In this document: one piece after another, positions 19,993 through 58,887 of the stretch
Position numbering within the stretch: the stretch's first letter is position 1
How the letters are laid out: each line of letters opens with the position of its first letter
DNA from: a virus
Virus record (IMG/VR): IMGVR_UViG_3300035698_017726
Coordinates: 1 to 64,000 of that record
Length of the DNA: 64,000 nucleotides
Strand: one strand, 5' to 3'
The notes under the pieces: model-generated
Databases searched by the model: none
Told to the model about the DNA's origin: nothing
The model's input: the letters and a program-made list of their open reading frames with translations, nothing else
Made by a program: the position numbers and the translations under genes

Positions 19993-20786
19993 GGCCGACG
20001 CTGACCGACGAACAGACTCACCCAATCATTCTACTCCGCATACTCACCAAGAAGTATGGAGTGGACTGGATGGAGTGGCCTCCGTCCGTCCTGAAGAAGA
20101 CGCTCAATGACGACTTCAAGGTCCCCATCGCTAGGATCAACGTAGCCAAGGCCATGGCTGTGGCTTCTATCGCTACCAGAGATGAGTTCTGGACCAAGTG
20201 GGAGACTTTCCACTACCTGACTCAGGCACTGAATAACAACATCCCGCATCTCACCGAGATGCAGGACCTCGGTGTGGGCCAGATGATGGTAGCTGTGGAC
20301 ATCGCTTCTACTATCCGTAAGGAACTGAAGGAGCTCAGCAGCGAGCCAGAGTTCGCTGAGGATGTAGCCAGGTTCATTGCGGCTCAAGCCAAACACGACG
20401 GCGTCTGGTACCTGCCGGAGCCTCTGGAATTCGCAGCGGCCTATGCGGCCGGAAAGTGGTTTAGTTGTCCAGACTGTGGGTCAGAGGGCGAGGTTATTCA
20501 CGACGATGGAGTCTGCGATATCTGCACTGACCGCCTCAGCACGGAGTCCTTGGGTAGTTGGGTAAGCCATCCAGAACTACTGAAGAAGAGCTGGGGCAAG
20601 AGCATCAAGACCTTTGAAAAGAATCCCACAGCCAAGGTAAAGTCTCGACTAGAGAAGGCCCTGGCCTCTCCTAATGTGACTCTGCACGAGAACTCTGCAG
20701 ATATTTGCGCTGTCAGGCTGATTGTAGCGCTCAACTACATGGGTAAGCGCAGAGAGCAGTTGAAGGAGCAAGAGAATGCCGACTGA
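19989..20786 (+). CDS. Hypothetical virion-module protein with Zn finger
   Basis: ATGA-coupled; CPDC...CDIC. Confidence 0.65.
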   Translation: MRPTLTDEQTHPIILLRILTKKYGVDWMEWPPSVLKKTLNDDFKVPIARINVAKAMAVASIATRDEFWTKWETFHYLTQALNNNIPHLTEMQDLGVGQMMVAVDIASTIRKELKELSSEPEFAEDVARFIAAQAKHDGVWYLPEPLEFAAAYAAGKWFSCPDCGSEGEVIHDDGVCDICTDRLSTESLGSWVSHPELLKKSWGKSIKTFEKNPTAKVKSRLEKALASPNVTLHENSADICAVRLIVALNYMGKRREQLKEQENAD

Positions 20787-21702
20787 TCCCACTGTCTATT
20801 ACTACTTCTCTGAAGAGATGCAGAAAGAAGCGCTCGAAGCTGGAGCCTTCAAGGACTTTGCTGGGAGCGTCGGTAGAGATGCCTTGAACGCGGCCAAGAA
20901 AGTCCCTGAGTTCTTGTCGAGTCAAGCGGGCAACCTTGCTGCCGCAGCTACTACTAACGACGCAGGCAAGTCTCTTCCCGTCGGCGAGCAGCTGAGGAAT
21001 GTGGGTGGCGCAGCTTGGAAAGGCATCAAGGCAATTCCAGGTGCTACACTCAACACCGCTGTGGATTCTGCCAAGAACGTGACCAAGCCGCTTCGAGACT
21101 TAGTTCGGCACCCAGTAGATACGGCGCAGGCGGGGTGGGGTAAGCTCAGCCCAGGGGTGATCAAGGCCCAAGCCGCTGCCCAAGCCGCAACGCAAAATAC
21201 AGGGCGAGCATATGGGTCCACGATAGGAGATACCAATAGTCTGTCGGATAGGTTGCGTAACAGCGGCTGGTTGGCCAATGTCGCTAAGTACCAGGGCGGC
21301 GCCGAGACTGAGATTGGGGATCACCTCTCTAGAGCGAGGAACACCATCGGACGTGCGCTGCCGGGTCAGAAGGCGATCTTTACAGGCACTACTGCCTTGA
21401 GCACCGCTAATGCTCTTCGGCAAAAGGAAGACAGTAGGACGGGTAGGCAGCTAGGACTAGGAGAACGCGTAGGACGCGCCGCCGGTAGTGTAGGTGGGGC
21501 CCTGGCCATGAATACTTTTGCCCCAGGAGGCAACTTCGCAGCCCGCATGATTGGAAAGAGGTATGCAGGTAGGATGATTGGAGGAGCTACCTCTAATGCA
21601 GGTCGCGTGGTAGATACTGCGGTGAACAAGGTACGCGGTAGACTACCCCAAGATGCCGCGCAGCGACGTCTGCAGTATCCTGCTGGGTACGGAGCCAGGT
21701 AA
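20776..21702 (+). CDS. Basic Gly/Ala-rich putative cargo protein with F-SEEMQKEA leader
   Basis: N-terminal YYYFSEEMQKEA and C-terminal GxxxG stretches. Confidence 0.55.
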   Translation: MPTDPTVYYYFSEEMQKEALEAGAFKDFAGSVGRDALNAAKKVPEFLSSQAGNLAAAATTNDAGKSLPVGEQLRNVGGAAWKGIKAIPGATLNTAVDSAKNVTKPLRDLVRHPVDTAQAGWGKLSPGVIKAQAAAQAATQNTGRAYGSTIGDTNSLSDRLRNSGWLANVAKYQGGAETEIGDHLSRARNTIGRALPGQKAIFTGTTALSTANALRQKEDSRTGRQLGLGERVGRAAGSVGGALAMNTFAPGGNFAARMIGKRYAGRMIGGATSNAGRVVDTAVNKVRGRLPQDAAQRRLQYPAGYGAR

Positions 21703-23672
21703 TGAACACTCTCTCTAGCGAATACAACAGGTTCAACCCCAGACCTACCTCTAGCGCAACAGGTGGTCGAGGGTTCGGTGTTCGCTACCCATCGCCCTTC
21801 TTCGACGTAGCTCAACAGTTCTTACCAGAAAACATACACCAGCTCCATGTCTGGTGTCGGTACTACTTCCTTACGAACCCCATCATCAACGTCGCCTGCC
21901 AGAAGATGGCGGAGTATCCAGTCACCAAGCTGGTGTATGAGACCGAAGATGAGAAGATCCAGAAGCTCTACTCCACGCTGGAGAGGAACCTACACCTCCG
22001 CCAGTTCCAAGTAGAGGTAGGCCTCGATTACTTCGTCTATGGCAATGCCTTCGTAAGCATCTGGTATCCGCTGGAGAAATACCTCCTCTGTACCAAGTGC
22101 AACAAGCGACACAGAGCCTCCAAGTCTCGTGAGTTCTATAAGTGGAAGGACTCCAAGTTTCAGCTGAAGTGCCCTGACTGTGGCCATGAAGGCTGGGCCA
22201 AGGAAATCGACCACTATCCCCGGAAGTTCAGAGAGATCCGTCTCATCAGATGGAACACCGAGAACATTTACCTCAAGCATAATGAGGTCACGGGTGCGAC
22301 CAAGTACTACTACAAGATCCCGAAGAGCATCATCAATGACGTGAAGATGGGAGACCGGGAGACCGTAGAGACAATGCCGTCGGCGTTCCTGGAAGCTATC
22401 CGTAAGGGCCGCTCTCTCCTCTTCAAGAACGACAACTTCTTTCACCTGAAGCGGCCGACTATCGCGCAGAAGGACCAGGGCTGGGGAGCTCCCCTCATCT
22501 TTCCTCTGCTCAAGGACGCGTTCTACCTGCAGGTGATGAAGAAGGCCCAAGAGACGCTGCTCATGGAGCACGTCGTACCTCTCAGGGTCATCTTCCCTGG
22601 AGCTTCTCAGGACGGAAACGCCGGCGCGTACAGTACGTACAACCTCCAGAACTGGAAGGAGAAGATCAATACTGAGCTCAGCCTCTGGAAGAGGGACAAC
22701 AACTACATCCCAATTCTTCCGGTCAACGTAGGCTTCCAGCAGTGGGGCGGTACAGCTAAGGCTCTGATTCTCCACCAGGAATTTAGGTTCACGGCGGAGC
22801 AGATGCTGGCCGGTGCCGGTATCCCGGTCGAGTTCGTATTCGGTGGCCTTCAGTGGAGCGGTACGAACACATCTCTTCGCGCACTGGAGAACATGTTCGT
22901 TGGGTACAACCTCCAGCGGCACGAGCTGATCAACGACTTTATTATCGGTAGCATCGCCGAGTGGATGGAATGGCCCAAGGTCAAGTCCAAGTTCGACCGC
23001 TTCAAGATGGCCGACGACCTGCAGAGGTCGATGTTCTACCTTCAGCTCAACCAAGCACAGAAGATCTCCGACCGTAGGCTTCTCGAAGAGATCGGTGAGG
23101 ACTTTGACGCTGAGAACGGAAGGATGGACGAAGAGCTCAAGCGTCAGCTCCAGACTCAGCGCAAGATGCAGGTGGCCTCCGCCGATATCCAGGGCGAGTC
23201 CATGCTTCGTCAGTCACGGTACCAGGCCAAGGCTACTGCTCTGCAGACCGAAGCACAGATGGAGGCCCAGTTCGCTACCCAGGCAAAGGCAGAAGCTCAG
23301 GCGCAGGGACAGCCTCCTGCGCCAGAACCTCCTACCACGGCTTTCGATCAACAGGGCCAGCCTGGAAGTGGGCCTCCTGGCACAGAACTTCCCCCCGGTA
23401 TGCAGGGCATGGGTTCCCCTCTTCAAGAAGGGCAAGGCGGCGTAGATCTGGCGTACATGGCCAAGAGGGCTGCTTCATATCTGAAGACCGTTCAGAAGGA
23501 GTCCGGTGACGACGCCATGTATCAGGAGCTCCAGAAGATGCAGATGGATAATCCTCCTCTGTACAAGCTAGTCATTCAGGTCCTGAACGACGGCGGCTCT
23601 AAGGATAACCCCATGAGCGCCCTAGAGAATCCGAACCCATCTGGTCAGGCTGCTCCTGCTAGAACCGTATAG
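21702..23672 (+). CDS. Portal protein with Zn-ribbon insertion
   Basis: W.RYY...NPII, DYFVYGNAF, FHLKRP...GWG.P, coiled-coil crown and Q/P-rich tail. Confidence 0.8.
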   Translation: MNTLSSEYNRFNPRPTSSATGGRGFGVRYPSPFFDVAQQFLPENIHQLHVWCRYYFLTNPIINVACQKMAEYPVTKLVYETEDEKIQKLYSTLERNLHLRQFQVEVGLDYFVYGNAFVSIWYPLEKYLLCTKCNKRHRASKSREFYKWKDSKFQLKCPDCGHEGWAKEIDHYPRKFREIRLIRWNTENIYLKHNEVTGATKYYYKIPKSIINDVKMGDRETVETMPSAFLEAIRKGRSLLFKNDNFFHLKRPTIAQKDQGWGAPLIFPLLKDAFYLQVMKKAQETLLMEHVVPLRVIFPGASQDGNAGAYSTYNLQNWKEKINTELSLWKRDNNYIPILPVNVGFQQWGGTAKALILHQEFRFTAEQMLAGAGIPVEFVFGGLQWSGTNTSLRALENMFVGYNLQRHELINDFIIGSIAEWMEWPKVKSKFDRFKMADDLQRSMFYLQLNQAQKISDRRLLEEIGEDFDAENGRMDEELKRQLQTQRKMQVASADIQGESMLRQSRYQAKATALQTEAQMEAQFATQAKAEAQAQGQPPAPEPPTTAFDQQGQPGSGPPGTELPPGMQGMGSPLQEGQGGVDLAYMAKRAASYLKTVQKESGDDAMYQELQKMQMDNPPLYKLVIQVLNDGGSKDNPMSALENPNPSGQAAPARTV

Positions 23673-23681
23673 GACGTCTCC

Positions 23682-24011
23682 ATGCACTACACTCTCGATA
23701 AGATCGGCTCCGCCTACTCACTAGCCGCAGAGAAGCTTGCTGCTGACATGCCGGGCAGTAAGCCCCAAGTGCCGCTAAAGGTACAGCATGGTCCTGCTTT
23801 CGGGGGAGTAGGGTCGAACATCCGAAGGATGGCTACTAGTGACGTCCCGAAAAGAGGGGTCACTGGCGCGCTAAAGAATGTGGCTAGCAAGGTCGCCCCC
23901 GCTACTAAGGCCTTGGGTCCTGTGACCCAGAGTGCCGCAGCTACGGGCACCAAGGTACTGCCGAACCTAATCGGCAAAGCCGTAAAGCCTTTGGTACGGG
24001 CAGCAGCCTAG
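23682..24011 (+). CDS. Small basic protein with EKLAA leader
   Basis: MHYTLDKIGSAY...EKLAA; the N-terminus resembles that of 36699. Confidence 0.55.
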   Translation: MHYTLDKIGSAYSLAAEKLAADMPGSKPQVPLKVQHGPAFGGVGSNIRRMATSDVPKRGVTGALKNVASKVAPATKALGPVTQSAAATGTKVLPNLIGKAVKPLVRAAA

Positions 24012-24678: not shown

Positions 24679-27600
24679 ATGGCCAACCTAAATCCAGAGG
24701 GCGCATTCGCCTCCCTCAAAGAAAGAACCAAGGATGCCATCAAAGCCCAGTTCCCCTACGTCGGAAAGAAGCATCGACTAGAGCTGGACAATCTCGAGGT
24801 AGTAGACTCCGGAGATAACCCTTCTTCGCTCTACCATGTCGACAACATTCAGTCTCAATATGATGCCAAGACCAAGGGTAGAACGTGGGCTGTCCCCATC
24901 AAGGCCGACCTTCGGCTAGTGAATGTGGATACCGGAAAGGTGATGGACAGATCCTCCATCACCCTCGGCAGACTTCCCAAGCTCACTCGTAGGTACACCT
25001 ACATCATCGATGGACAGGAGCGTCAGCACGACTCCGTCTTCCTTCTTCGAGCTCGGCCGTACCACATCAAGACCGATAGTGGCGCCATTCAGGCAAAATG
25101 GAACCTGGCCAAGGGCCATGGCTTTGACCTAACCATCGACCCATCGACGGGTGTGATGAAGATGAAGGTCGGCACCACCAATATCGCTCTGTACCCCGTA
25201 CTCAAGGCCATGGGGCTATCCGACTCGGATCTGGAGGCTAAGTGGGGACGCAGGGTCCTTGAGACCAATAAGGCCAAGGGTAAGCCAGAAGAGCTGCTGA
25301 AGTTCCACAGGTTCTTCAGCCGGCGCTACAAGGGGTACTCGACTCCGAACGTAGATGAAGCCGCAGCCTTCGTCCGAACCACCTTCGAGGCCACAGAGCT
25401 CCGCCCCGACGCCATGAAGACGGCCTTCGGAAAGGAGTTCACCAAGGTAGATGGAGAGAATCTTCTCCTGTCTTCAGCCAGAATCCTCAACATCAGTAGA
25501 GGTAAGGAAGAGGAAGACGATAGGCAGTCCCTAGCCTCCAAGGACCTGACCGGAACAGAGGACTTCATCGTCAAGTTCATTGCGCGCGGCACCAGAGACA
25601 TGAGCCGTAAGGTCAAGAACAACCTGGACCGGGCCGATAAGATCTCCGACATCATCTCGCCGAATATGTACACGCGCACCATCCTGAGCACCTTCCAGGA
25701 AGCGCAGCGCCCAGACCAGACAAATCCGCTCAACTTCATCTCTGGCTACCAGAGAACCACTATCCGTGGCGCCTCCTACGGCGGCATCAAGGGAGAGCGC
25801 GTCAACCTGGACAGGGACAAGCAGATCAACCCATCCCACCTAGGCTTCTTGGATCCTGTGCAGACGCCTGAGTCTCAGGACACTGGCGTAGTCCTTCATC
25901 TGCCCCTGGGTGTACGGAAAGAAGGAACCCAGCTCAAGATTGACGTCTACGATGTCAAGAAGAAGGCCTGGGTGGCTGTCACTCCGGGAGACCTAGAGTT
26001 CGAGGTTGTTGCCTACCCGGACCAGGTCAAGTGGGTAGATGGAAAGCCTAAGCCCATCGCCAAGAACGTAGCTGTCTACGATAAGGACCGCCAGACGGCT
26101 AAGCGTCCTTGGACCTCAGTCAGGTACATCTTGGCCTCCACCAAGGGACTCTTCTCCTTCGGCGCCAACCTGATTCCCTTCCTAGGAAACAACAACGGAA
26201 ACCGCGCCATGATGGGCGTGAAGCAGATGGAGCAGGCTGTCTCACTGGTGAACCGGGAGCAGCCCTTGGTCCAGACCAAGGCCAGCAAGAACATGTCCTT
26301 CGAGGAAGCGGTCGGCTCGTTCAGTGCCCACTTCTCTCCCATAGACGGGACAGTTACCTCTGTCACCAAGGATGAGATCGTCATTCAGGGCGCCAACAGG
26401 AAGGTCTCACGCGTCCAGATCTACAACAACTTCCCCCTCAACGGAGGAAAGGGTGTCCTCAACGCTATCGCCAAGGTGAAGCGCGGAGAGAAGGTAAAGA
26501 AGGGACAGCTCATAGCGGACACCAACTTCACTGAGAACGGGCATCTTGCTCTTGGGGCTAACATCAGAGTGGCGTACATCCCCTACAAGGGGCTGAACTT
26601 CGAGGACGGTATCGTTGTCGCTGAGTCGGCAGCGAAGAAGCTGTCCTCTATGCACATGCACCAGAACTCGGTCACTATCTTCCCCGGCATGGTGGTCAAC
26701 AAGCAGAGATGGGCTGACTACGCTCTCCCAGAACTGGCCACCCAAGAGCGGATGGCCAAGCTGGACAATGATGGTGTGGTCAAGGAAGGAGAAAAGGTCA
26801 AGGAAGGGGACATCCTCGTTGCGCTACTAGCTCCCAGTGAGAGAACCAAAGACGACGAAGACGTAGCGTCTATCCGTAAGTCTCTGGTCAAGGACTACAA
26901 AGATCGGTCATTGTCATGGGACCACTCGTACCCAGGTGAGGTCGTCAAGGTCATCAGAAGCGGCAAGAAGATCATGGTCCATGTGAAGACCGAGGAGTCT
27001 CTAGCCGTAGGAGACAAGCTCACTGCTCGTCACGGCAACAAGGGCATCGTCAGCCGCATTCTTCCTGACCATGAGATGCCTCACACCAAGGACGGCAACG
27101 CTGTCCAGGTTCTGTTGAACCCAGCAGGTGTGCCTTCTCGTATGAACGCTGGGCAGATCCTAGAGACCGCTGCCTCCAAGATTGCCAAGAAGACCGGCAA
27201 GCCCTATGTCGTGGAGAACTTTGAGCACGGTAAGGACTACACGCAACAGGTCAAGGACGACCTGAAGAAGCACGGGCTGACCGACACCGAGGAGCTAATC
27301 GATGCCAAGACCGGTAGGTCACTAGGACAGGTCCTAGTAGGTGACCAGTATCTGCTGAAGCTTCACCATATGGTAGAGAAGAAGATGACGGCTAGGTCCT
27401 TTGGTGGATCCTACAACGTCCACGGGACTCCTCCAGGTGGGGCCGGTATCCCTGGTGGAGGCCAGCGTTTTGATCAGCTGTTGACCTACGCCATGCTAGC
27501 TCATGGCGCCAAGCACAACCTACGTGAGGCCTACACCTTCAAGAGCGACGCGGACCAAGACGAGGTCTGGTACGCCGTGATGACAGGCAGACCCCTACCC

Positions 27601-30600
27601 GACCCACAGCCCACTAGAGGTATGAAGAACTTCACTACCTATCTGAAGGCGATGGGCATCAATACAGAGAAGGAGGGAGACAAGTACGTCCTATCTCCCA
27701 TGACCGATAAGCAGACCACTGCCATCTCCAATGGCTCGTTGGAGTTCCCAGAGAAGGCACTGAAGGCAAAGGGCCTACGAACCATGGAGGAGGCCGGAGG
27801 TCTCTTCGACCCACGTAAGACCGGCGGCCTAAGTGGTCAGTTCTGGACACACATGGAGCTCGAGGAGAGGATCCCCAATCCCATCTTCGAAACGGCTATT
27901 CAGTCTCTACTCGGCATGAAGAAGAAAGAGTTCGAGCATATGGTTTCCGCCAGTGGTGGAGACGGAAAGCGCTCTGGCTTCGAGATCCTAGCAGAGCAGC
28001 TGCGAGTCATTGACGTTCCCTCTGAGCTGAAGAAGACGGAAGAGTCTCTTCCCAAGCTCAAGGGTCCGCAGCTAGCCAAGGCGTACAGAAAGGTACGGTA
28101 TCTCCGCGCGCTGAAGAGCAACAACGTCTCTCCTGTGGACGCGTACACCAACAAGGTGCTGCCGGTAGTTCCGCCATCGGTGCGCAGAGTAAGCATCGGC
28201 TTGGATGGGAGTCAGATCTTCGATAGCCTCAACGGGCTGTACAGGTCCGTAGGTCAGATCAATGGACAGCTAAAGAATGCTGACCCATCTACCCCATATA
28301 GTGAGATGCAGGCCCAGCGAGCTCACCTGTACGATGCTGTTAGGGCTCTTCGCATGACCGGCATGGATATGGGCGAGGGTACCAAGTCGCGACACCACTT
28401 CGGCCTGATGGAGAAGATGAAGGGCCAGGCGCCCAAGCATTCTTTCTTCCAGGACGGAGTACTGAAGCGTCGGCAGGACCTGTCAGGTAGGTCAACCATC
28501 ATTCCCGAGCCCGACATGGGACTGGATGAGGTGGGCATTCCTCTGCCAATGGCCTTGGAGCTGTATCGTCCCTTCGTACGTAGAGAGCTCTTCCTCAACC
28601 GAGGCTACGCGCCCAACCAAACTGGGCAGCTCGTTGATAAGAAGGACCCTGCAGCTATTGAGGCGCTCCACAGAGTCATCAATGAGCGTCCGGTTCTGCT
28701 GAAGAGAGACCCAGTACTCCACAAGTTCGGAGTCATGGCCTTCAAGCCGAAGATCATCTCCGGTAAGGCCATCGCCATTCACCCGCTGGTGACTGGCGGG
28801 TTCAACGCTGACTTCGATGGGGATGCCATGAGCATCTTCGTTCCGGTCTCTCAGGAAGCCGTTGATGAGGCCAAGACTAAGCTACTGCCGTCCAAGAACC
28901 TGTTCTCCCCTACCCACGGCGGCATCATGCCGGTGCCGGGTCAGGGGTCTCTACTTGGGCTGTACCAGGCTACCAAGTGGGGAACAGTCACTGCTGTCCC
29001 TACTGGCATCACTCCAACGAAGGCTATCTCGATGCTCCGAGGAGGGAAGCTCAAGCCCTCTGACGTCATCACCATTGGCGGAAAGACGACTACTCCCGGA
29101 CGACTACTCCTGGATTCGGAGCTCCCCAAGGACATGCGAGGGAACAAGACTCTTCTGTACGACCAGACCTTCCGTCTGGACAAGAGAGGACTGAAGAGAC
29201 TGCTGACCGAGGTCGGAAAGAAGCATCCTAAGAGCTTCCCAAGGGTAGTGGATGCATGGAAGGACCACGGCAACACGCTCGCCTACATGAACGGCAGCTC
29301 CATCACGCTGAACGACATCCATGACGGCAAGGAGATTAGGGACCAGGTCCTAAAGAAGTACAAGCTCGAAGAGGACTCCATCCGGTCCAGTACATTGGAC
29401 CGGAAAACCAAAGACAAGAAGGTAGTGGCCCTGTATAGCAAGGCTATGGGTGAGCTGGAGACAGTAGGCAACGTTGCGTATACTCGTAGAGGGGACAACA
29501 ACCTTCATGAGTGGGCCGCATCCGGAGCTCGTGGAGGCTGGTCCCAGTTCAGTCAGCTAGTCATGGGGCCAATGCTGGTTCAGGATTCCAAGGGTAAGCC
29601 TGTTCCTGTTCCCATCACCAAGTCCTTCGGCGAGGGACTATCCGTTCCTGAGTACTGGGCCTCTCTACACGGTGCCAGAAAGGGGACCCTCGATAGGGCT
29701 ACTGAGACTGAGAAGCCTGGCTCGCTGACCAAGGACATTATCAACACCGTCATCAATCACCACGTCACTGCGGATGACTGCGGTACCGATAAGGGCGCCG
29801 CCATGAACCCCATGGACGCGGATTGTACGGACAGGTACTTGGCCAAGGATGTGAAGCTCAAGGGTGGAGACATCATCGCGGCCCGAACCTTGCTGACTCC
29901 TCCGTCTCTTACCCGGATTCGGAACTCCAACATCCAGAAGATCGTAGTGCGGTCTCCTCTTCACTGCCGTCAGGCCTCCGGTATCTGCGCAAAGTGCTAC
30001 GGACTCAACGAGAACGGTAAGCTCTACTCGGTAGGCACCAACGTTGGTGTCATCTCAGGGAACGCCTTGGGAGAGCCTGTCACTCAGCTCACCATGAAGA
30101 CCTTCCACACCGGAGGTACCGTCACTGGGGGCGGTGAGGATGGCGATGTAATCGATAAGTTCAAGAGGGTTCAGCAGCTTTTCTTCGTACCAAAGAAGCT
30201 TCCAGGAGCCGCAACGTTGGCCACAAAGAGCGGTACCATCACTAAGGTGGTGGCCAACAGGTCACTTGGCGGCATGGATGTCTATATCGACGCTAAGCGT
30301 CACTATGTTCCTGCTGGCCTGACGCTACTGCCTAGCGTCTCCAAGGGACTGACAGTCAAGAGAGGAGATCCCCTGTCTTCTGGTCCAATCAATCCCCATT
30401 CTCTGCTGAAAGAGACCGGGAACGTCAACGCGGTACGCGCGTACATGACCGATGAACTACAGAAGACCTACCCTTCCGGGATTAGAAGGCGTAATATTGA
30501 GACCGTCGTTCAGGCAATGACCAACCTGACACAGATTGAGGCGGCAACTGACCACCCAGAATACGATAGAGGCCAGATGCTTCCGCTGTCTCAAGTAGAG

Positions 30601-48867: not shown

Positions 48868-48949
48868 ACACTGACTCGCTGTGGCCGAGGGGCCTGCCTG
48901 TCCCTGTAGACGCCCTGACTACAAATCATCCATTCCCCGAGAGACCAAA

Positions 48950-49924
48950 ATGTCCCTGATGGAAACCCTAAGAGAGCAAGGCGTCACTGCTGAAGATCTC
49001 GAGAAGGCCGCCTCTGTGCGCCTGTTCGAGAAGGTAGCTGCGTCGGAAAGCGTAGACCTCAACTCCCTCAACGAAGCCCAAGTGAACGAGCTGTACGCTC
49101 ACTTCACAGAGAACGTCCTTCCCGGTATGGGCGGAGACGAAGCCCCAGCTGCCGCAGCCGAAGAGGCTCCCGCTGCTGATGCAAAGACCGCAGCGTATCA
49201 GACAGCTGCTACCACAGTTCTGTTCCTCAAGCAGGCTAGTGACGAAAAGATCGATGTCGCTAAGATGGACCAAAGCGAGCTGGACGGCCTCTACGCTCAC
49301 TTCACAGAGAACGTTCTCCCTGGCATGCTCCAGGAAGATGCGCCTACTGGCGAGAAGGATGCAGGAATGCGTCCCCCCACCGTCTACCTCTTCGAGAAGA
49401 TGGCAGCCGCCGAAAAGATCGATTTGGGAGCAATGTCCGATGACGACCTTGGTGGTCTCTACGGTCACTTCCTGAACGACGTTCTTCCTGGAATGCTTCC
49501 TTCTGAAGAAGCTGCTGCTCCAGAAGCTGCTGCTCCAGAGAGCAAGACTGCTTCTGCTGAAGACGTAGAAGAGGCCGCAGCCAAGCTGGCCGAAGCCGAT
49601 ATCCTTGGACGTCAGATGGCCGGTAGCTTCATGGCCGAGCTCAACAAGCAGGCCTCCGGCCTTCCTCCCTTCATGAAGAAGGATGAGGACAAGGATGAGG
49701 ACAAGGACGAGAAGGACAGCAAGGACAAGAAGGAAGACAAGGACGAGAAATGCGCGTCCTCTCCTCTCTTCGAGAAGCTGGCCGACGACCGCGCTGCTGA
49801 GATTCTTCAGGCCAATGGCGTAGACGCTGCAGCTGCTCCGGCAGATGAGCCCCAGTTCGACGACCTAGTCACTGCTCGAGCAGTAGAGAAGCTCAAGGGC
49901 CTCGGCTACCAGTTTGAGGAGTAG
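48950..49924 (+). CDS. Acidic scaffold-like protein with three internal repeats
   Basis: Three copies of LF.K.A..E.[VI]D...LY.HF...VLPGM; 11 K-x-A sites. Confidence 0.65.
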   Translation: MSLMETLREQGVTAEDLEKAASVRLFEKVAASESVDLNSLNEAQVNELYAHFTENVLPGMGGDEAPAAAAEEAPAADAKTAAYQTAATTVLFLKQASDEKIDVAKMDQSELDGLYAHFTENVLPGMLQEDAPTGEKDAGMRPPTVYLFEKMAAAEKIDLGAMSDDDLGGLYGHFLNDVLPGMLPSEEAAAPEAAAPESKTASAEDVEEAAAKLAEADILGRQMAGSFMAELNKQASGLPPFMKKDEDKDEDKDEKDSKDKKEDKDEKCASSPLFEKLADDRAAEILQANGVDAAAAPADEPQFDDLVTARAVEKLKGLGYQFEE

Positions 49925-50167
49925 GTGATGGTTAGGAGCAGCCCTCTTTGGTCTGCCTTCTTCGAGGAAACCTCGAAGCTGGCAGCTACGCCTGGAATGG
50001 CTGCTCCTGGCTCAGCCGTAGCTACGCCCAACGTAGCTACTACTGGTCAAGGTGGAACGAGCTTTATGGGTACTGGACGGACCGGTTCTGGACCTAACGC
50101 CCTGGCGCTTCCCTCCCCTTCTGTGACGACTATCTCTCCTACCCCTTTTCCACGATTCAGACCGTAA
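49925..50167 (+). CDS. Small protein with FFEETSKLA leader
   Basis: 80 aa, with a low-complexity tail after the leader. Confidence 0.55.
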   Translation: MMVRSSPLWSAFFEETSKLAATPGMAAPGSAVATPNVATTGQGGTSFMGTGRTGSGPNALALPSPSVTTISPTPFPRFRP

Positions 50168-50178: not shown

Positions 50179-51039
50179 ATGAGCCGGAATCAATCAATGA
50201 TCGACGAAGCTCTGGAGCACGCCAAGCAGAGACTAGGCGCCGCCGGCTCCAGGGACTCCGAAAAGACCGCTTCTTCTACCCCGGACTTCGTTAAAGAAGC
50301 CACAGAAGTAGCCAATGCTCTAGAGTTCGTAGCCCGTAGCACCGTCGACGACGGTACTCCGCAAGCTCCCCACAACCAGAGCATCCTAGACGACTTCTTC
50401 AAGGGCGCCGCAGGCAAGAAGGGGCCCGCAGCTGGGTCCACTGATGCCGGTGGCACTCAGCAGCAGCCTCCAGTAGCCGGTAAGACCAAGATGCCCATTG
50501 GCAACACCGGAGCTACCAATCCAGAGAACAGTGAGTCTCCCGAAGGCGTGATGGGCCGCGATAAGTTCAAGCAGGAGCCCCCTGCCGTCAAGAAGCCTCC
50601 CCTGGATGGCGGCGGTAAGCAGGCCGGTCTCTCCATGTTCGACATTCTGATGTCGCAGCAAACAGAGAAGGAAGCTGCTGGTGGCGGACCCAAGGAGTTC
50701 TCATCTACTGATGCGGCTCCAGGCATTCCAAGCAAGAACGAGAACTCCAATCGTGATGCTCTCCTAGGCAGCAATGAAGCTCCGGTCAGCGCAACCAAGC
50801 GCGAAGCCAAGAAGCCCACCCGTGCTCGCCTTGCCGAAGTCTTTGCGCACACCCACGACACCGTTGGTGACGCTACGGCCAAGGCTGTGTGGCCCAATGC
50901 CGCTCAGAAGGGCGACATGAAGATCGCCGGTGCCAAGGAAGGATCCCTCTACGAGTTCAGTGAGCTCTTCGACCTCGCCTCAAAGGGTGAGCTTGGTAAG
51001 GAAGCTCAGGTCTGGGCCGCGCAAGTAGAGAGTATGTAA
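50179..51039 (+). CDS. K-x-A-rich disordered internal protein
   Basis: EKTAS, VKEAT, GKQAG, EKEAA, MKIAG; AAGGA SD. Confidence 0.65.
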   Translation: MSRNQSMIDEALEHAKQRLGAAGSRDSEKTASSTPDFVKEATEVANALEFVARSTVDDGTPQAPHNQSILDDFFKGAAGKKGPAAGSTDAGGTQQQPPVAGKTKMPIGNTGATNPENSESPEGVMGRDKFKQEPPAVKKPPLDGGGKQAGLSMFDILMSQQTEKEAAGGGPKEFSSTDAAPGIPSKNENSNRDALLGSNEAPVSATKREAKKPTRARLAEVFAHTHDTVGDATAKAVWPNAAQKGDMKIAGAKEGSLYEFSELFDLASKGELGKEAQVWAAQVESM

Positions 51040-51042: not shown

Positions 51043-52797
51043 ATGGCTGCTCCAACCCTTTCAGTTGCCCTACAGCGGGGGAAGAAGACTTTGTTCAAGA
51101 AGCCTTCTCCTCAGCAGGGTGAGGTACCTGGAAAGGTTGCGGACATGGCCAATCCGACTACGTCCCAGTTGGACCTGCTGAACACCGTTCCGTCCGCAAG
51201 GATGGATCGGTATAAGCAGTACCTTCAGGGACACGCAGAGGCTCCGCCTATCGATGTTGTAGAGAAGGCTAGTCCAATTGCCCAAGCCGGAAGAGGCATA
51301 GGCACGGTAGCCGGGTCGGTGATTGGGGCCCCCGTCTCTGCCGTTGCTCGTTTGGGTGGTAGAGAGAGAGCACTCAGCGCGTTTAAGTCCACTCAAGGCC
51401 TAGGCGCGGATATAGGTGGTCGTCTTGGTGGGTTCGTAGGAACTGAGGCGCTAAAGGCCCAGGAAGCGAAGAGATCTCTTCGTGCCCAAGAAGCTGAGAG
51501 AGCTCTAGGGTCAGACGACCTACAAGCGAATATGGAAAACGCGGTCTGGAGTCAGCAGCTAGGCCAGAACAACACTCGTGGTGCGGCGCAAGACAAGGCT
51601 GACCTCGAAAAGGCCCGGATGAGGACCAAGCTTCTCAGCCAGGGGATGAACCTGTATGGTAAGTCTGTAGCCGGCGGTGGCCTACCTTCAGCACCTATAG
51701 ATTCCGGCCCAGGGATCGGAGAGCAGCTTAAAGACGCATTCAACTCCGTGAGGGGCTCCGTGACTGGAAAAACTGCTGGAATCGGCGAACCTAGTCAAGA
51801 TCAGTTGGATCTTCTGAATACGCATCCATCCATGCGCGCAGATAAGTACAAGCAGCATCTGCAGGGATACGTAGACCGCCCTCAGATTGACCCGGAGTCA
51901 GGGGTTGGAACGGGTAGAGTGACCGGCGGTGTTACCGGTGGGCTACTCGGAGCAGGACTTGGAAGTATTGTTGCTAGCGGCAACCCTTTGGCTGGCGCAG
52001 CTGTTGGTGGCGTCGCCGGTGCGGGTCTTGGTGCTTGGGGCGGCGGGTCTCTGGCGCGCAGTAATGCCCAGAGCACCAATGAAGATAACGCCATGTGGTC
52101 CGAGCACGCCAAGGAGCTCCTTGGTAACGAGGACCTCACTCCTCACATGGAGAACGCCGTCTGGAGACAACAGCAGCACCAAACCCAGATGCGAGAAGAG
52201 CAGGAAGCTGAAGAGCGGCAACGTCGCCAGGAGATGACGGCTAAGCTAGTCGGCCAGGCCATCGATGCCTATAAGGACCGGGGAACCCCACAGCCCGCTC
52301 TGCTACAAGAAGCTGCTCCTGCGCAAGAGCCAATGCACGTTGACCCTAGGTCGAGCTTTGGTTCTCCTCCCCCTGATGAACGTGCTCCCAAACTCAAAGA
52401 ACGAGCACCTAAGCTCAAGGCTAAGGACTCAAATCGCCCACTAGGCGATGAGGACATTCCTTCCTGGGCAGAAGACAAAGACGCGTTCCGCGCCGCACAG
52501 AAAGAAGTAGAGGGGTACAAGGCTGCGTCTCTACGTGACTACGCACAACTTTATGAATTTGCATCTACCGGTGAGCTAGGTAAAGAAGCTCAAGCGTATA
52601 TCACTGGCTTCGCCCAGCTAGTTGATGGTAAGCTTGGCAAACCATATCTCACTAAAGTCGCCGATGAAGCTTCAGTCCAAGAGTCTGCAGAGGATGCGAA
52701 AAAGCGTAGGCTTTCTTCGCTTCTGAAGAAGCAGGCACCTTCTGGGACTGTGACAGGATCGGCATCCCCGAACCCACCAATGGGATACCTACAATGA
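51043..52797 (+). CDS. Tandem glycine-zipper polyprotein-like protein
   Basis: Two homologous modules (QLDLLNT...MENAVW) separated by GKTAG. Confidence 0.65.
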   Translation: MAAPTLSVALQRGKKTLFKKPSPQQGEVPGKVADMANPTTSQLDLLNTVPSARMDRYKQYLQGHAEAPPIDVVEKASPIAQAGRGIGTVAGSVIGAPVSAVARLGGRERALSAFKSTQGLGADIGGRLGGFVGTEALKAQEAKRSLRAQEAERALGSDDLQANMENAVWSQQLGQNNTRGAAQDKADLEKARMRTKLLSQGMNLYGKSVAGGGLPSAPIDSGPGIGEQLKDAFNSVRGSVTGKTAGIGEPSQDQLDLLNTHPSMRADKYKQHLQGYVDRPQIDPESGVGTGRVTGGVTGGLLGAGLGSIVASGNPLAGAAVGGVAGAGLGAWGGGSLARSNAQSTNEDNAMWSEHAKELLGNEDLTPHMENAVWRQQQHQTQMREEQEAEERQRRQEMTAKLVGQAIDAYKDRGTPQPALLQEAAPAQEPMHVDPRSSFGSPPPDERAPKLKERAPKLKAKDSNRPLGDEDIPSWAEDKDAFRAAQKEVEGYKAASLRDYAQLYEFASTGELGKEAQAYITGFAQLVDGKLGKPYLTKVADEASVQESAEDAKKRRLSSLLKKQAPSGTVTGSASPNPPMGYLQ

Positions 52798-53162
52798 CTG
52801 TAAAGCTAGGATCGACACAGATCTCTGCAGTAGCTGCTCGGGGTGCCCAGACTATTCGCTCTCTGACAGAGAAGGCAGCTTCTTTGGATTCTGAGAACGA
52901 CGGTCTGCGTCAGGAACTGGCCGATCTGAGGCGTGATGCTCGCATCAGCAAGATCGCGTCGGAGATGGACGACAAGGGCCTTCAAGCAGACATGACCTTC
53001 GAAGAGAAGGTTGCAGCTCTCCGTGAACATGACAATCTCGACCTTGCAGAAGAGGCCGTGAAGTTTGCTTCTTTCGCCGTTCCGCTGGCTACCGTCTCTG
53101 AAGATGGGCCTACGGAGAATCAGGGCGGAAGTCTTCATGGCTATCTTGTGACAGGCGGATAG
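52794..53162 (+). CDS. Small coiled-coil scaffold-like protein
   Basis: EKAAS, SKIAS, EKVAA, VKFAS; precedes the capsid genes. Confidence 0.6.
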   Translation: MTVKLGSTQISAVAARGAQTIRSLTEKAASLDSENDGLRQELADLRRDARISKIASEMDDKGLQADMTFEEKVAALREHDNLDLAEEAVKFASFAVPLATVSEDGPTENQGGSLHGYLVTGG

Positions 53163-53172
53163 CAATCCGGCC

Positions 53173-53201
53173 TTGCATACATGCATCATAGGCCATACCA
53201 T
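53173..53201 (+). promoter_or_regulatory. Sigma70-type promoter of the capsid operon
   Basis: TTGCAT-N17-TACCAT followed by a TAAGGAGG SD. Confidence 0.6.
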
Positions 53202-53228: not shown

Positions 53229-53792
53229 ATGGCCGGAACCTATATCTCAATCCTGCAGCCAGGTTACTCCACTCTGTGGACGCGTGACCTGCTGTACACG
53301 CCAGGCACCAATGAAAGTGCCTCCATCAACCCCTTCGATCCCAACGATGATCGACCCCTCGTAGAGGGTGAGTGGCTAGAGCATTCGTCTACGGTACAAA
53401 ACCGCGTCTCACGCGGCGGCGCCAATGGTGCCGGTGCTGGAGCATGTACTGCTCCAGGTATCAAAGAAAACGAAGGCATGAACCCCTCGTATATGTACTT
53501 CATGGAACAGGGACGGTACGACGCGCAAGCAACTAAGCGCGTTCACATGATCTTGGGCCCCTACGGATACGAGTTCCGTACCAAGCTCTGTGACGATACC
53601 GTGGCTATTCCGGTGAACACCGCTCTTACCGTCTGGGACTGGGATGGCCCGGCAGGCGCATGGGGCTTGGTACGTCGTGTTCTTGGAGCTCGCGTAGATG
53701 CGGCTTCTTGGACCGTTGGTCGCGTTGTTCGTGTCTTTGGCACAAACGACGTTAGCGTCATCTTCATGCCTGGTTCCGGCCACGCGGCCTAA
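53229..53792 (+). CDS. Probable head decoration/cement protein
   Basis: Immediately upstream of the MCP gene with a perfect SD; beta-rich. Confidence 0.55.
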   Translation: MAGTYISILQPGYSTLWTRDLLYTPGTNESASINPFDPNDDRPLVEGEWLEHSSTVQNRVSRGGANGAGAGACTAPGIKENEGMNPSYMYFMEQGRYDAQATKRVHMILGPYGYEFRTKLCDDTVAIPVNTALTVWDWDGPAGAWGLVRRVLGARVDAASWTVGRVVRVFGTNDVSVIFMPGSGHAA

Positions 53793-53802
53793 GGAGTACA
53801 CC

Positions 53803-54960
53803 ATGGATTACACTGCTGAAATGGTCAACTCCGGCTTCCTAGAGAGACTGGACACCGATGGCCCCACTAAGGTGGCCGCCAACACCCTCAACTACATCAA
53901 GGACAGGTTGCGTGAAGCGAGCTTCGCCGACATGATCGTCCCCGCTCAACGTGTTGTGCGTGGCGATCTACAGCGTAGTACCGAGCACGACACCATGGTC
54001 AAGATCGTGGACATCGAGCCCGGCTCACGCGCCATGAGCTTGAACTTCCGTGGCCAGCCCGAGGCCGTGTACATCACCGGTAAGCGCTATGCGATCACCT
54101 TCTGGACCATCTCGTCCATGAAGTTCGAGATCGTCGAGCAGGAGCTGATGGCGTACGAGATGCCTGTGACCAAGATCATTGAGGAGAACAGCCTCAAGGA
54201 TATGGTTGAGGTAAAGGACCGCGAGTTCCTGTACCACGTCGAGGCCTGCATCGAAGCTATGCAGAGTGAGGGTAATGCTGGCGCCACCGCGTTCAACACC
54301 ACGAACGTGAACCTCGGTCCCGCGACCGTGGTTGGTGTTTCCAAGCTGAAGGGCGAGCTCGCTCTCCAGCAGGTGACTGACGACTTCGTGTCGTACGCCA
54401 TCTCCCGTCCTGACATCGTCAAGATCAAGAAGCTGCTCAAGCGTCAGATTCTGGATGCCGCCGGTAACGTCGTGCGCCAGGGACGTCTCAAGCCAGCTCT
54501 GATGCTGATGACTGAGTCGGACACCGATGACTTCGACCAGTGGACCCATGAGGACTTTGGTGACAGGCTCCAGTCTGACACCACTACCGACGGGTACACC
54601 TACAACAAGGTCCTAGGTCTGCGCATCATCCGCACGATCAAGAACGACATCCTTCGTGAAGGCAACGTCTACATCTTCACCAGCCCTGAGTTCTTCGGTA
54701 GGAACTACATCCTCAACGATGTGAAGTTCTATATCGACAAGATCGCTAACCGGATCTTCTGGCAGGCCTGGATGGACATTGGTATGGGCTTCGGAAACAT
54801 CGCTTCCGTAGTCAAGCTTGAGCTCTACTCTGGCTCCACCATCACTGGTGCTACCGATACCGGCTTTGCGGCTGCCATCCCGGTTGAGGAAGAGGAAATC
54901 GGAGCTCAGAACAACAAGGCTGCAGACGGTCTGACCTTCCCCAGCATCACCGTCTACTAG
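53803..54960 (+). CDS. Major capsid protein (HK97 fold)
   Basis: 385 aa, AAGGAG SD, strongly C-ending codons and a downstream terminator; position after protease and scaffold; DRLRE.SF...E.KDREFL. Confidence 0.8.
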   Translation: MDYTAEMVNSGFLERLDTDGPTKVAANTLNYIKDRLREASFADMIVPAQRVVRGDLQRSTEHDTMVKIVDIEPGSRAMSLNFRGQPEAVYITGKRYAITFWTISSMKFEIVEQELMAYEMPVTKIIEENSLKDMVEVKDREFLYHVEACIEAMQSEGNAGATAFNTTNVNLGPATVVGVSKLKGELALQQVTDDFVSYAISRPDIVKIKKLLKRQILDAAGNVVRQGRLKPALMLMTESDTDDFDQWTHEDFGDRLQSDTTTDGYTYNKVLGLRIIRTIKNDILREGNVYIFTSPEFFGRNYILNDVKFYIDKIANRIFWQAWMDIGMGFGNIASVVKLELYSGSTITGATDTGFAAAIPVEEEEIGAQNNKAADGLTFPSITVY

Positions 54961-55757: not shown

Positions 55758-55762
55758 AGAGC

Positions 55763-56245: not shown

Positions 56246-56246
56246 A

Positions 56247-56753
56247 ATGCTAGGCTTAGGTCCCACTATTGCGGTTCCTACGGCAAGCGCCCGCATGAAC
56301 GAGCTGATTGCACGCATTCGGCTCTTCACGCGGGACTTCCCCGAACTGAACCGACTCATCAAGGGTGAAGAGTCCAGCGACCGTATGATCGCTTGGGCGA
56401 TCATCGACACCCTTGATGATTGGAACTCCACCCCTCCATTTCTAAGCATGGCCGCATCCATTTCCAACTTCCCCTCGGAGCACTTGTTGGTCCGAGGGGC
56501 AGTCTGCTGTCTCCTAGAGAGTGTCGGTCTTCTTCAGACCCGGAACCACCTTCAGTTCTCTGATGGTGGCCTGTCTGTGTCGATCTCCGACAAGGCTCCG
56601 CTCATCATGAACTGGATTCAGCTCTTCAGAACGCAGTACGAGCAGAAGAAGCTCCGCATGAAGACGGCTATCAACATTGAGATGGCCTTCGATGGATCAG
56701 GAACCTTCTCAGAGTACTTCGCCGTCAACGGAATCTATATGGGAGCGTTCTAA
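56247..56753 (+). CDS. Head-tail adaptor (neck protein 1)
   Basis: IRLFTRD...FSDGGLSVS...W helical pattern; synteny. Confidence 0.65.
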   Translation: MLGLGPTIAVPTASARMNELIARIRLFTRDFPELNRLIKGEESSDRMIAWAIIDTLDDWNSTPPFLSMAASISNFPSEHLLVRGAVCCLLESVGLLQTRNHLQFSDGGLSVSISDKAPLIMNWIQLFRTQYEQKKLRMKTAINIEMAFDGSGTFSEYFAVNGIYMGAF

Positions 56754-57322
56754 TGCCCAAAGACATCCCGAACACCATCTGGAAGGCTGATGACCCTCTA
56801 GAGCGTAAAGTCCATGCTGCCGAGTATTGGTCCGAGCTCACAGGTAGAGATGAGTCCGCTAAGCGTGAAGCTGAGAGAGTTCCCTCTCCGCACGATGACG
56901 CTGAGGTGGAGTACGAGGATGGAGGGCACACCTTCGAAGATGAGAAGGATGCCTCTGTCCCTGAGGACCTGAAGGCACCGCTAGTTGGTGGAGCTATTGG
57001 GGGCACACTCGGTGCTGCTTCTGGGGCTGCTCTCGGCTACCACAATAGCCGTCCCGGTGCCGACGGTAAGAGCCGCTCCGAGATAGGAAGAGAGCGGAAG
57101 CTCAGGGATCATCTCGAAGACAAAGAGCGGGCCGGTAAGGCTCCAGGGCTTCGGGCCAAGTATCACCAGATGATGCTGAACGAGGCCGTCAAGAACAGGA
57201 AGTCTCCTCTTCGCGGAGCTCTAGGCACTGCCGTAGGAGTAGGAACTGTAGGAGCACTCAGCGGAGCTGGAGTCGGCGCTGAGTATCAAGGGGCTAAGAG
57301 TGATCACGCTTCGGAACTGTAG
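56753..57322 (+). CDS. Glycine-zipper protein with EKDAS site
   Basis: Acidic N-terminal part, EKDAS, then two Gly zippers. Confidence 0.6.
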   Translation: MPKDIPNTIWKADDPLERKVHAAEYWSELTGRDESAKREAERVPSPHDDAEVEYEDGGHTFEDEKDASVPEDLKAPLVGGAIGGTLGAASGAALGYHNSRPGADGKSRSEIGRERKLRDHLEDKERAGKAPGLRAKYHQMMLNEAVKNRKSPLRGALGTAVGVGTVGALSGAGVGAEYQGAKSDHASEL

Positions 57323-58169
57323 GGTCGTCTCCTTTAGCAGGGAGTACATGGATATCTTCTGGGAGGTTGAACCTACCAACGAGGATATCCAGGCCTTCGA
57401 GTTTTACGTGGAGCGGTCAGAAGCGGAAGCCGGACCTTGGCAGCAGATTGCGGGTCCCCTTATCGACAGGTACTACGTCAGAGACGACAGCGCGCCACAG
57501 CTCTACGTCGCTAGAAGGATGTTCTACCGAGTAAAGGTACGGAATACGCTACAGGGTTGGGAGTCTTACTCCGACGTCCTCATTCGTGAGGGAGAACGTG
57601 ACCTTATCTCTGAAGAGATTGTGCGCGCTGAAGCCGTCCTCTTCAGAGAGTTCGTAGGCCGCAAGTGTTGGATGTTCCCCGTACGCACCTTCGGCCAGAG
57701 ATGCCCTCAGTGCTACGACAAGGTGATGCAGAAGGCTACTGACGACAGATGCCCCACATGTTGGGGTACTGGCTACTCCGGAGGCTATCACTACCCTATC
57801 GCCTTCTGGGCGCAGCTGGATGAGGGAGAGGAGTCCATCTCGGCTGCCTCCGACCATCACAGCATGATACTGAACTTTACCATCAGAACTGGACCGTCTC
57901 CTGGGATGAAGCCAGGGGACCTGATCATCGATAATCTCAATAGACGGTCTAGAGTGCTTTCTTACTCCAGTACTCGCCGTTTAGGAGTACCTGTTAGGCA
58001 GGAATGCCGTATGGTTATGGTTCAGCCCAACAGCGTAGAAGACGCCATTCCTCTGCGCGTAGACCACGAAGACGAGGTGTTGGTGCCGCCTAGGAACTTT
58101 ACGAATCCCCAGTGTCTAGAAAGCGCTGACTCAAGCGTAGACGATATACTCGATAAGTATGGGTACTGA
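57300..58169 (+). CDS. Head closure/neck protein 2 with Ig-like N-domain and Zn finger
   Basis: W...FYVERS..YRVK, CPQC..CPTCWGTG, KPGDLII. Confidence 0.65.
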   Translation: MITLRNCRVVSFSREYMDIFWEVEPTNEDIQAFEFYVERSEAEAGPWQQIAGPLIDRYYVRDDSAPQLYVARRMFYRVKVRNTLQGWESYSDVLIREGERDLISEEIVRAEAVLFREFVGRKCWMFPVRTFGQRCPQCYDKVMQKATDDRCPTCWGTGYSGGYHYPIAFWAQLDEGEESISAASDHHSMILNFTIRTGPSPGMKPGDLIIDNLNRRSRVLSYSSTRRLGVPVRQECRMVMVQPNSVEDAIPLRVDHEDEVLVPPRNFTNPQCLESADSSVDDILDKYGY

Positions 58170-58887
58170 GATGTCTGAAGAGCCTAAGACCAAGATTCAG
58201 ATTCCATGGAAGACTCATCTGACCAACGCCGGTTTGGTGGGCCTCAGCATGGGTGGTGGCTATGCTGCCGGATCCTTGGCTGGGTACGGACTGGCTAAGA
58301 TTCCTGCGGTTCGTGACCAGTGGCACAGCATGACGCCCAAGGAAAGAGCGACGTTCAAGGGAGTAGCTCTAGCGGGTCTTTCTACTGCAGCAGGTACCGC
58401 TGCAGGTTTAAGGCGTATGGGCACCAATGCTCGCATCAAGAAGTCCATGCTGGAGATGGAGAAGGCTGACAGGGAAAAGGATAGCCTCCAGAAGGAAGCT
58501 GGGGCCGTCTTCACTCAGGCATTCATCTCTGAAGTAGAGAAGATCGCAGAGCGCGAGCTCTCTGAGATGGAGAAAGAGGCCATTGTCCAGGCCGTCAAAG
58601 ACATAGCAAGTAGGGGCAAGCCCCTCTTAGCGGCAGGCATGAAGGCTGTAACAAAGGCCGCTCCAAACCTAGTCCAAGGAAGCGCCTCCAGTCCTGCCGA
58701 GGCCATATCAGGCGGGATAAAGGACGTAGCCTCTCGACTTACCCATACTGCTCCCCGTCCTCATGGAGGAGTAACCCAGTTAGCCTCTCGTCAGCTAGCT
58801 AAGAAGGGCCCAGTAGCTGGAATCGGCAAGGCCCTGAATTGGAGTGCTCCCGCATTCGGGCGCTTTGCGATGGAAGCCGCTACATGA
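58159..58887 (+). CDS. Two-module Gly/Ala-rich cargo-like protein
   Basis: Internal QKEAG-AFISEVEKIA-EKEA junction. Confidence 0.6.
   Translation: MGTEMSEEPKTKIQIPWKTHLTNAGLVGLSMGGGYAAGSLAGYGLAKIPAVRDQWHSMTPKERATFKGVALAGLSTAAGTAAGLRRMGTNARIKKSMLEMEKADREKDSLQKEAGAVFTQAFISEVEKIAERELSEMEKEAIVQAVKDIASRGKPLLAAGMKAVTKAAPNLVQGSASSPAEAISGGIKDVASRLTHTAPRPHGGVTQLASRQLAKKGPVAGIGKALNWSAPAFGRFAMEAAT

Follow-up and report, generated by a model that had tools for sequence, protein, structure and literature searches.

What do the otherwise unrelated head proteins of a large uncultured phage have in common, and what might the shared element be for? The stretch of DNA analyzed here (the window, 64,000 nucleotides) comprises the initial 64 kb of a phage contig of 114,832 bases, IMG/VR record IMGVR_UViG_3300035698_017726, which is estimated to be 62% complete. 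The phage has no near cultured relative; a megablast search with 20 kb against cultured phages matched nothing. An original prediction had proposed that several of its proteins begin with, or carry at a module junction, a common helix of the form F-x-[DE]-E-hydrophobic-x-K-x-A, that others carry a second type of leader, and that such leaders, like the capsid-targeting sequence (CTS) of phage T4, load arbitrary cargo into the head. All nine strings quoted for it are present in the window. We find that the shared element is mainly a shorter motif, K-x-A(-S), which lies mostly in linkers and scaffold repeats rather than in leaders, and we consider it likely to be the recognition and cleavage motif of the clade's own prohead protease (open reading frame (ORF) 46987-48867), with the cut probably falling between Ala and Ser.

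The K-x-A(-S) motif in the head module

The genes in question form a block on the + strand, from 18931 to about 59700, which constitutes the head module; a weak tail-sheath match begins at 59700, and the gene order of the module is similar to that of Salmonella phage Arash. Expected counts were obtained from shuffles keeping the composition of each protein, over the 156 ORFs of the whole contig, and an unbiased count covered all 48,000 three-residue patterns with gaps. The clade set comprised 47 related uncultured loci, with 13 representative loci serving for the pattern count. At the top of the ranking for the block stood E-K-x-A (33 occurrences vs. 5.3 expected, p = 6e-16) together with K-x-A-S (30 vs. 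4.6, p = 3e-15), and over the representative loci K-x-A-S was found 189 times where 30.3 were expected (p = 2e-83). Across the 47 uncultured loci plus Arash, Vibrio phage D69 and phage G the excess of K-x-A-S is 5-6-fold, and the longer form E-K-x-A-S occurs 14 times in the contig against 0.72 in shuffles. K, A and S are each specific, in that any substitute residue at those positions scores about 1x. In a logo built on 273 non-redundant sites the consensus is hydrophobic-Glu-Lys-[Thr/Val/Ile]-Ala-Ser-[Ala/Leu/Val], i.e. with a hydrophobic residue at -2, Glu at -1 and Thr, Val or Ile at +1, and with no general Phe at -6.

The same excess is seen in the head modules of the cultured phages, each of which has a homologous protease. 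The 40-kb locus of Arash holds 16 K-x-A-S sites (and 18 E-K-x-A vs. 3.2 expected), the head module of D69 holds 21 K-x-A-S (vs. 4.3) and that of phage G 13 (vs. 2.6). Phage G gp19 has two of these sites in its C-terminal tail, the scaffold-like D69 gene 0271 has seven, and both Arash gp206, the large RNA polymerase protein annotated as subunit beta, and its D69 counterpart, gene 0261, have one at residues 3-6. Arash gp206, gp220, gp222, gp223 and gp225 have been detected in particles; the particle list gives 116 proteins with coverage values, including primase and ribonucleotide reductase (PMC10585845).

The motif is restricted to head-assembly genes. Accessory ORFs from 18931 to 53162 contain 26 K-x-A-S sites vs. 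2.8 expected, and the remaining 123 ORFs contain 4 vs. 5.4, that is, no excess. Within the window, no K-x-A-S site was found in the following proteins:

21702..23672, + strand: portal protein candidate (phrog_2833, E 1.1e-4; gene order as for Arash gp204)
24679..30852, + strand: fused beta-beta' RNA polymerase, 2057 aa (Pfam Rpb2_6 5e-68, Rpb1_2 3e-27, Rpb1_5 1e-24)
41043..42839, + strand: large terminase (phrog_675, E 2e-60)
53698..54960, + strand, probable start 53803: major capsid protein (phrog_2522, E 3e-5; tblastn match to Vibrio phage D69)

The proposed loading of arbitrary cargo thus found no support: in 115 kb, every tagged protein is encoded within the head block, and since the RNA polymerase, which is presumably packaged, has no site, the tag cannot be a general packaging requirement.

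Sites stand out as conserved islands in variable linkers, where K and A reach 0.85-1.0 and the flanks 0.16-0.3, as illustrated by three proteins:

44862..45740, + strand: 292-aa head protein, homologue of Arash gp220; K-x-A-S at nt 44967-44978, 45144-45155 and 45201-45212
46036..46059, + strand: loose example of the originally predicted helix, residues 26-33 of ORF 45961-46986; K-S-A followed by a Pro-rich stretch
50179..51039, + strand: 286-aa protein; E-K-T-A-S at residues 28-32, nt 50263-50274

At residue 134 of the first protein, K is conserved at 0.85 and A at 0.90 vs. 0.24 for the flanks, and both reach 1.0 at residue 238, within an E-K-T-A-A at residues 237-241. The ORF 45961 site (K 1.0, A 0.92, flank identity 0.16) and the ORF 50179 site (K 1.0, A 1.0, S 0.75, flank identity 0.29) were each compared over 12 homologues. 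The sites are also predicted to be accessible: an AlphaFold model of the ORF 44862 product, with a predicted local distance difference test (pLDDT) score of 77, places sites 95, 114 and 134 in a disordered segment (97-142) and site 238 in a loop (232-250).

Two leader families and a scaffold-like repeat protein

Sites near the start of proteins are overrepresented, with K-x-A-S falling in the first 45 residues of 8 of the 34 block proteins (0.58 expected). Two leader families aside, the sequences upstream of these eight early sites have nothing else in common, and because the leaders are alike in those two families only, the element common to most proteins would be a cut site, not an address. 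The leaders of the window, and the helix at a module junction, are as follows:

20800..20832, + strand: type-1 leader, residues 9-19 of ORF 20776-21702, K-x-A at residue 19; member of the clade-wide leader set
49955..49984, + strand: type-1 leader of the small Pro/Gly-rich protein ORF 49925-50167; sole conserved element over 7 homologues
23682..23741, + strand: type-2 leader, residues 1-20 of ORF 23682-24011, K-I-G-S-A-Y ... E-K-L-A
36699..36743, + strand: type-2 leader, residues 1-15 of ORF 36699-37013, K-V-A-D-A-Y-K-R-A, then a Gly-rich stretch
58519..58548, + strand: originally predicted helix, residues 121-130 of ORF 58159-58887, at a module junction

Type 1 (aromatic-x-x-Glu-hydrophobic-x-Lys-x-Ala) corresponds to the helix of the original prediction, whose consensus describes a genuine subclass of sites but takes the wrong residues as its center. 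Of the 118 K-x-A sites of the block, 6 combine Glu at -3 with an aromatic residue at -6 (0.68 expected; 0 of 2000 resamples reach 6), and the strict form F..E..K.A has 6 matches in the whole contig against 0.25 in shuffles. Replacing the K or the A of the helix pattern abolishes the excess, so the core is K-x-A(-S). When hydrophobic-x-x-[DE]-hydrophobic-x-K-x-[AG] was sought within the first 45 residues over the 47 related loci, type-1 N-terminal leaders were found in 28 distinct proteins vs. 1.6 expected, and once the leader is removed BLAST sorts these proteins into 16 families, some of them perhaps remote kin, which supports the claim that the leaders sit on proteins with no other relation by BLAST. 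The window itself has type 1 in only 2-3 proteins and type 2 in three.

In the ORF 20776 family, an N-terminal Y..F..E-[LMI]-x-K-x-A is kept in 3 homologues of 34-47% identity. The consensus of the ORF 49925 family is W-x-x-F-F-x-E-hydrophobic-x-K-hydrophobic-A, and in 3 of its 7 homologues a K-x-A-S stands just upstream of the leader. Read directly from the sequences, the type-1 segment shows a hydrophobic face; that it is helical is weakly suggested by one modelled site, a 4-residue low-confidence helix within a disordered linker. Positions assigned to the seven helices were in four cases gene starts rather than the motif; the segments lie at 20800-20832, 49955-49984, 58519-58548, 49625-49654, 46036-46059, 45243-45269 (K-S-A-E, in ORF 44862) and 30966-30989. 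Those of ORFs 20776 and 49925, and loosely that of 45961, are near the protein start, and the others are internal, among them the helix of ORF 58159, which is located between an N-terminal module that occurs as separate proteins of about 100 aa in relatives and a C-terminal module.

One could suppose that the likeness of the helices arose by chance among a few sequences rich in Ala, Glu and Lys, given that only two of the seven examples match the full consensus and that the loose form F....K.A, with 8 occurrences in the whole contig vs. 4.7 in shuffles, is not above chance alone. The three loose examples nonetheless fall on K-x-A columns kept in homologues. Chance is rejected by the excess of the strict form, also when conditioned on K-x-A, by the 28 N-terminal instances across the clade and by orthologous conservation in five families, and we give it next to no credence.

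The second leader type proved real. In relatives, M-x-K-[IVL]-A-A-Y...K-x-A is present in 10 proteins vs. 0.12 expected, where it occupies 20-25 N-terminal residues of the form M-[DN]-K-[IVL]-A-A-Y...P-L-W-x-K-[TS]-A. ORFs 23682 and 36699 are alike in their first 15 residues only and unrelated beyond, and in some relatives (L045-L047) the gene after the portal, in the position of ORF 23682, begins M-F-K-T-A-S. All listed leaders, of both types, end in K-x-A.

Repeated motif copies are most prominent in a scaffold-like protein:

48881..49924, + strand, probable start ATG 48950: scaffold-like protein with 3-4 tandem repeats of about 45 aa; K-x-A-S at nt 49004-49015, 49229-49240, 49544-49555, 49646-49657 and 49748-49759

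Each repeat opens with hydrophobic-F-E-K-x-A-[AS] and ends with a conserved N-V-L-P-G-M-type segment. The first site is conserved in 14 homologues (K 1.0, A 1.0, S 0.86), and at the originally predicted helix (49625-49654) K is kept at 0.93 and A at 0.64, so that at the sites of ORFs 44862, 45961 and 48881 the motif exceeds flanks of 0.16-0.29, with this A as the lowest value. The refuting condition attached to the original prediction, a motif kept no better than its surroundings in homologues, is thus not borne out. Stop-codon read-through from ORF 48881 into the in-frame ORF 49925, across one stop (49922-49927), was considered and rejected as unlikely, the genes of relatives being apart or in other frames.

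That these internal repeats each bear the motif fits a structural or ancestral artefact, in which K-x-A would be a helix-start motif of Ala-rich coiled-coil head proteins, or the remnant of a paralogous domain, and would carry no signal; K-x-A-A and K-x-A-E, too, show an enrichment of about 2x, as expected in helices rich in Ala, Glu and Lys. However, composition-preserving shuffles still leave a 6-9x excess, and the motif occurs in mutually dissimilar proteins (the polymerase N-terminus, the portal, the protease and small Pro-rich proteins), as far away as phage G. It is also kept where the flanks cannot be aligned, and the leader-bearing proteins are as diverse as described above. We therefore regard an artefact of this kind as very improbable.

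A candidate prohead protease

If the motif is a cleavage site, an enzyme that reads it should be sought in the same block, and one candidate is available:

46987..48867, + strand: head-maturation protease candidate, 626 aa (phrog_18299, E 1.6e-6); K-x-A-S at nt 47095-47106, 47329-47340, 47863-47874 and 48184-48195

The gene is located between the terminase and capsid genes. Its product has homologues in phage G (gp19), Arash (gp222) and D69 (0270), of which gp19 is listed as a head maturation protease (PMC12484599). The phrog_18299 match recurs in 5 of 14 homologues, among Atlas clusters that bear a name, Peptidase_S77 and S80 come closest (language-model neighbours), and in a Foldseek search T4 gp21 (5jbl) ranked 3 and 7, weakly (E 1.7, from a model of pLDDT 60). 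All four sites of the protein lie in, or at most 2 residues from, low-pLDDT segments of the model, and neither K37 nor A39 varies over 14 homologues. Also invariant are H137/H138, S194 and H220, which follow the His-Ser-His order of the fold shared by T4 gp21 and the herpesvirus protease.

Two further features of this protein were observed. Residues C204, C207, C218 and H220 are invariant in all 14 aligned homologues and resemble a small zinc-binding cluster in the protease domain, which covers about residues 118-295, and H220, as part of this Cys-rich cluster, might bind metal instead of serving in catalysis. Some homologues are far longer, at 1046-1105 aa (L021 10001-13141, L040 9893-13210), and Atlas structural neighbours carry LAGLIDADG/Hint domains, which suggests that inteins are inserted in the head protease gene of some relatives.

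In the mechanism that we propose, the protease would read about P5 to P1' (hydrophobic, Glu, Lys, x, Ala | Ser), with hydrophobic-Glu-Lys-[Thr/Val/Ile]-Ala-Ser as the preferred form. N-terminal leaders would be removed as propeptides at the motif, domains of internal and accessory head proteins would be parted at motifs in their linkers, and the scaffold-like protein would be cut into repeat-sized pieces as the capsid matures. What the sequences show is the motif, with its specificity, confinement to the head module, conservation and predicted accessibility; cleavage by this protease, the bond cut and any role in targeting are inferred from these. Types 1 and 2 may then represent two families of short N-terminal propeptides ending in the site, with type 1 as an amphipathic aromatic-x-[DE]-E-hydrophobic-x-K-[IL]-A segment, whose hydrophobic face may add protease binding energy or dock on the core. 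Leaders may also help to draw a protein into the assembling core, as the CTS does in T4. A stronger version of this idea holds that both leader types are a second, independent kind of capsid-targeting sequence, which, as amphipathic peptides, would dock on the scaffold-protease core, carry any protein fused to them into the prohead and be clipped at Lys-x-Ala by a protease with a specificity (after Ala, with Lys at P3) unlike that of every studied phage protease of the fold; we hold this version to be tentative and on balance doubtful.

Several observations weigh against cleavage by this protease. The protein was designated a candidate on weak similarity: its AlphaFold model is poor (pLDDT 60) and allows no firm fold call, the hhalign comparison of the protease family with T4 gp21 was not significant, and a profile search of the PDB with the family found nothing relevant. 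We place the scissile bond between Ala and Ser by analogy with the A-x-E|S spacing in SPN3US and with herpesvirus assemblin. Several window sites are not kept at the same position in homologues, one site in the ORF 44862 model stands where a confidently modelled helix ends, the scaffold-like protein could owe part of its excess to structure, the motif opening a structural repeat, and no type-1 leader was found at N-termini in the head loci of Arash, D69 and phage G.

Alternatively, the motif could be an uncleaved docking element, i.e. an amphipathic peptide that binds the shell interior, the scaffold or the portal and retains proteins in the head, in the manner of encapsulin cargo-loading peptides or of the C-terminal helices of scaffolds. 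The hydrophobic face of the type-1 segment, its standing as the sole conserved element of the ORF 49925 family and the opening of every scaffold-like repeat with the motif would all suit such an element, and leaders of 4-6 residues seem too short to merit removal. On the other hand, single-residue specificity holds for the strict Ala-Ser as well as for the Lys two positions before Ala, as is typical of protease subsites, and the majority of sites are found in disordered linkers, where no helix is present. As many as seven sites in one scaffold-like protein, together with the tail sites of the phage G protease, fit degradation and self-processing, and the capsid protein, portal and polymerase do without the element altogether. 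Docking without cleavage is accordingly an unlikely account, if a less remote one than an artefact.

Known systems and further head proteins

In phage T4, the prohead protease gp21 recognizes (Leu/Ile)-x-Glu. It removes the CTS of the internal proteins IPI-III and Alt (PMC3012670). The window resembles T4 in that proteins with no other likeness carry a short N-terminal leader terminating in the putative motif of the candidate head protease, and in that the same motif occurs many times in scaffold or core proteins and in the protease itself. It differs in its code, Lys-x-Ala(-Ser) instead of aliphatic-x-Glu, in having two leader families rather than one, with most sites being internal linkers, and in its tagged genes, which all lie within the head block instead of being scattered and are known here from sequence. 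The likeness to the T4 CTS that had been proposed therefore stands for the conserved short leaders, whose terminal motif is best explained as a head protease cut site, and fails for the majority of sites, which are not leaders.

The prohead proteases of phiKZ and SPN3US (gp175 and gp245) cut after (Ala/Ser/Gly)-x-Glu, with Ser preferred at P1', and A-x-E sites are repeated within SPN3US propeptides (PMC10052503). More generally, in T4- and phiKZ-like phages the motif is repeated in propeptides, the scaffold is cleaved at many points and the protease processes itself (PMC10052503; PMC3012670). As in phiKZ and SPN3US, the motif of the window clade spans three positions and Ser comes next, many head proteins carry what would be N-terminal propeptides, long or short, a single propeptide can hold several copies of the motif, the protease is predicted to cleave its own tail, and the virion presumably contains RNA polymerase. 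Unlike in those phages, Ala precedes the predicted cut, Lys stands two residues earlier, and the capsid protein and portal of the window have no site; the likeness of the candidate to S80 proteases comes from language-model neighbours only.

In herpesviruses, the release and maturation sites of assemblin are Ala|Ser or Ala|Thr, e.g. Y-L-Q-A|T and V-Q-A|S in pseudorabies virus (PMC4498786). Assemblin is a Ser-His-His protease of a fold shared with T4 gp21, and its sites free the protease and detach the scaffold. The cut predicted here would likewise fall after Ala and before Ser, with the difference that Lys at P3 and Glu at P4 are preferred; the fold and catalytic triad of the window enzyme are candidates. 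Encapsulin cargo-loading peptides are mostly C-terminal, uncleaved and of another consensus. Under a docking model, they would be comparable in being short conserved peptides on unrelated cargo, addressed to the interior of an HK97-fold shell.

Our literature search found no paper on a K-x-A-S or Lys-x-Ala(-Ser) head-protease motif, although one may have been published for phage G. What is new here are the two N-terminal leader families ending in a K-x-A site; propeptides cut by a protease and CTS-like leaders were already known. To our knowledge, the tailed-phage head proteases of this fold family characterized so far cut after glutamate. If the cleavage reading is true, Lys-x-Ala|Ser, being closer to the herpesvirus rule, widens the known range of specificity of head proteases, and mature protein ends become predictable across a large, mostly uncultured group of phages with their own RNA polymerase. 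The three cultured members (Arash, D69 and G) make such cut-site predictions testable, and if the leaders also target proteins to the head, T4 would no longer be the only natural source of a protein-packaging tag.

The remaining head-block proteins with sites are listed below:

18931..19992, + strand: 353-aa head-block protein; K-x-A-S at nt 19003-19014, 19258-19269 and 19396-19407
30849..31517, + strand: 222-aa protein; K-x-A-S at nt 30861-30872, 30918-30929 and 30981-30992, all in the first 48 residues
32738..35149, + strand: 803-aa protein; K-x-A-S at nt 34088-34099 and 34694-34705
35210..36697, + strand: 495-aa protein; K-x-A-S at nt 35339-35350, 36104-36115 and 36443-36454
51043..52797, + strand: 584-aa protein with a lysin-like domain; K-A-A-S at nt 52519-52530, near the C-terminus
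52794..53162, + strand: 122-aa coiled-coil-like protein; K-x-A-S at nt 52872-52883, 52950-52961 and 53061-53072
56753..57322, + strand: 189-aa protein; E-K-D-A-S at nt 56945-56956, not kept in its 3 homologues

The second site of ORF 18931 has the helix form F..EL.K.AS upstream and aligns with K-[ML]-A-S in 3 homologues. ORF 30849 has a type-2-like start (K-V-A-S-A-Y) and also contains the loose example of the helix at 30966-30989. Homologues of ORF 35210 have E-K-N-A-S eight residues upstream of the first site. An apparent natural experiment at this ORF, in which one orthologue has M-K-K-V-A-S just before the start of the window protein, was rejected, the other orthologues being unrelated there, and a second such case was discarded, its ORF being cut by the locus edge.

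Some of these proteins have features of their own. The ORF 32738 product has a glycine-zipper match at residues 733-778 near its C-terminus, just below the Pfam cut-off, which makes it a candidate membrane-active ejection protein. The middle domain of the ORF 51043 product (residues ~280-390) matches phrog_1047, 'tail associated lysin', and relatives, and the protein is possibly an ejected cell-wall hydrolase. ORF 52794-53162 (+) overlaps ORF 52806-53201 (-); the + strand fits the operon, and a length-based gene caller picks the - strand. The RNA polymerase gene, a single ORF (24679-30852) that joins the domains of beta and beta', comes right after the portal gene, and in relatives the protein is either fused (2091-2472 aa) or split (L046, 1074 + 1069 aa; Arash gp206 + gp216). 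In Arash, the subunits of this enzyme rank among the most abundant proteins of the particles (PMC10585845).

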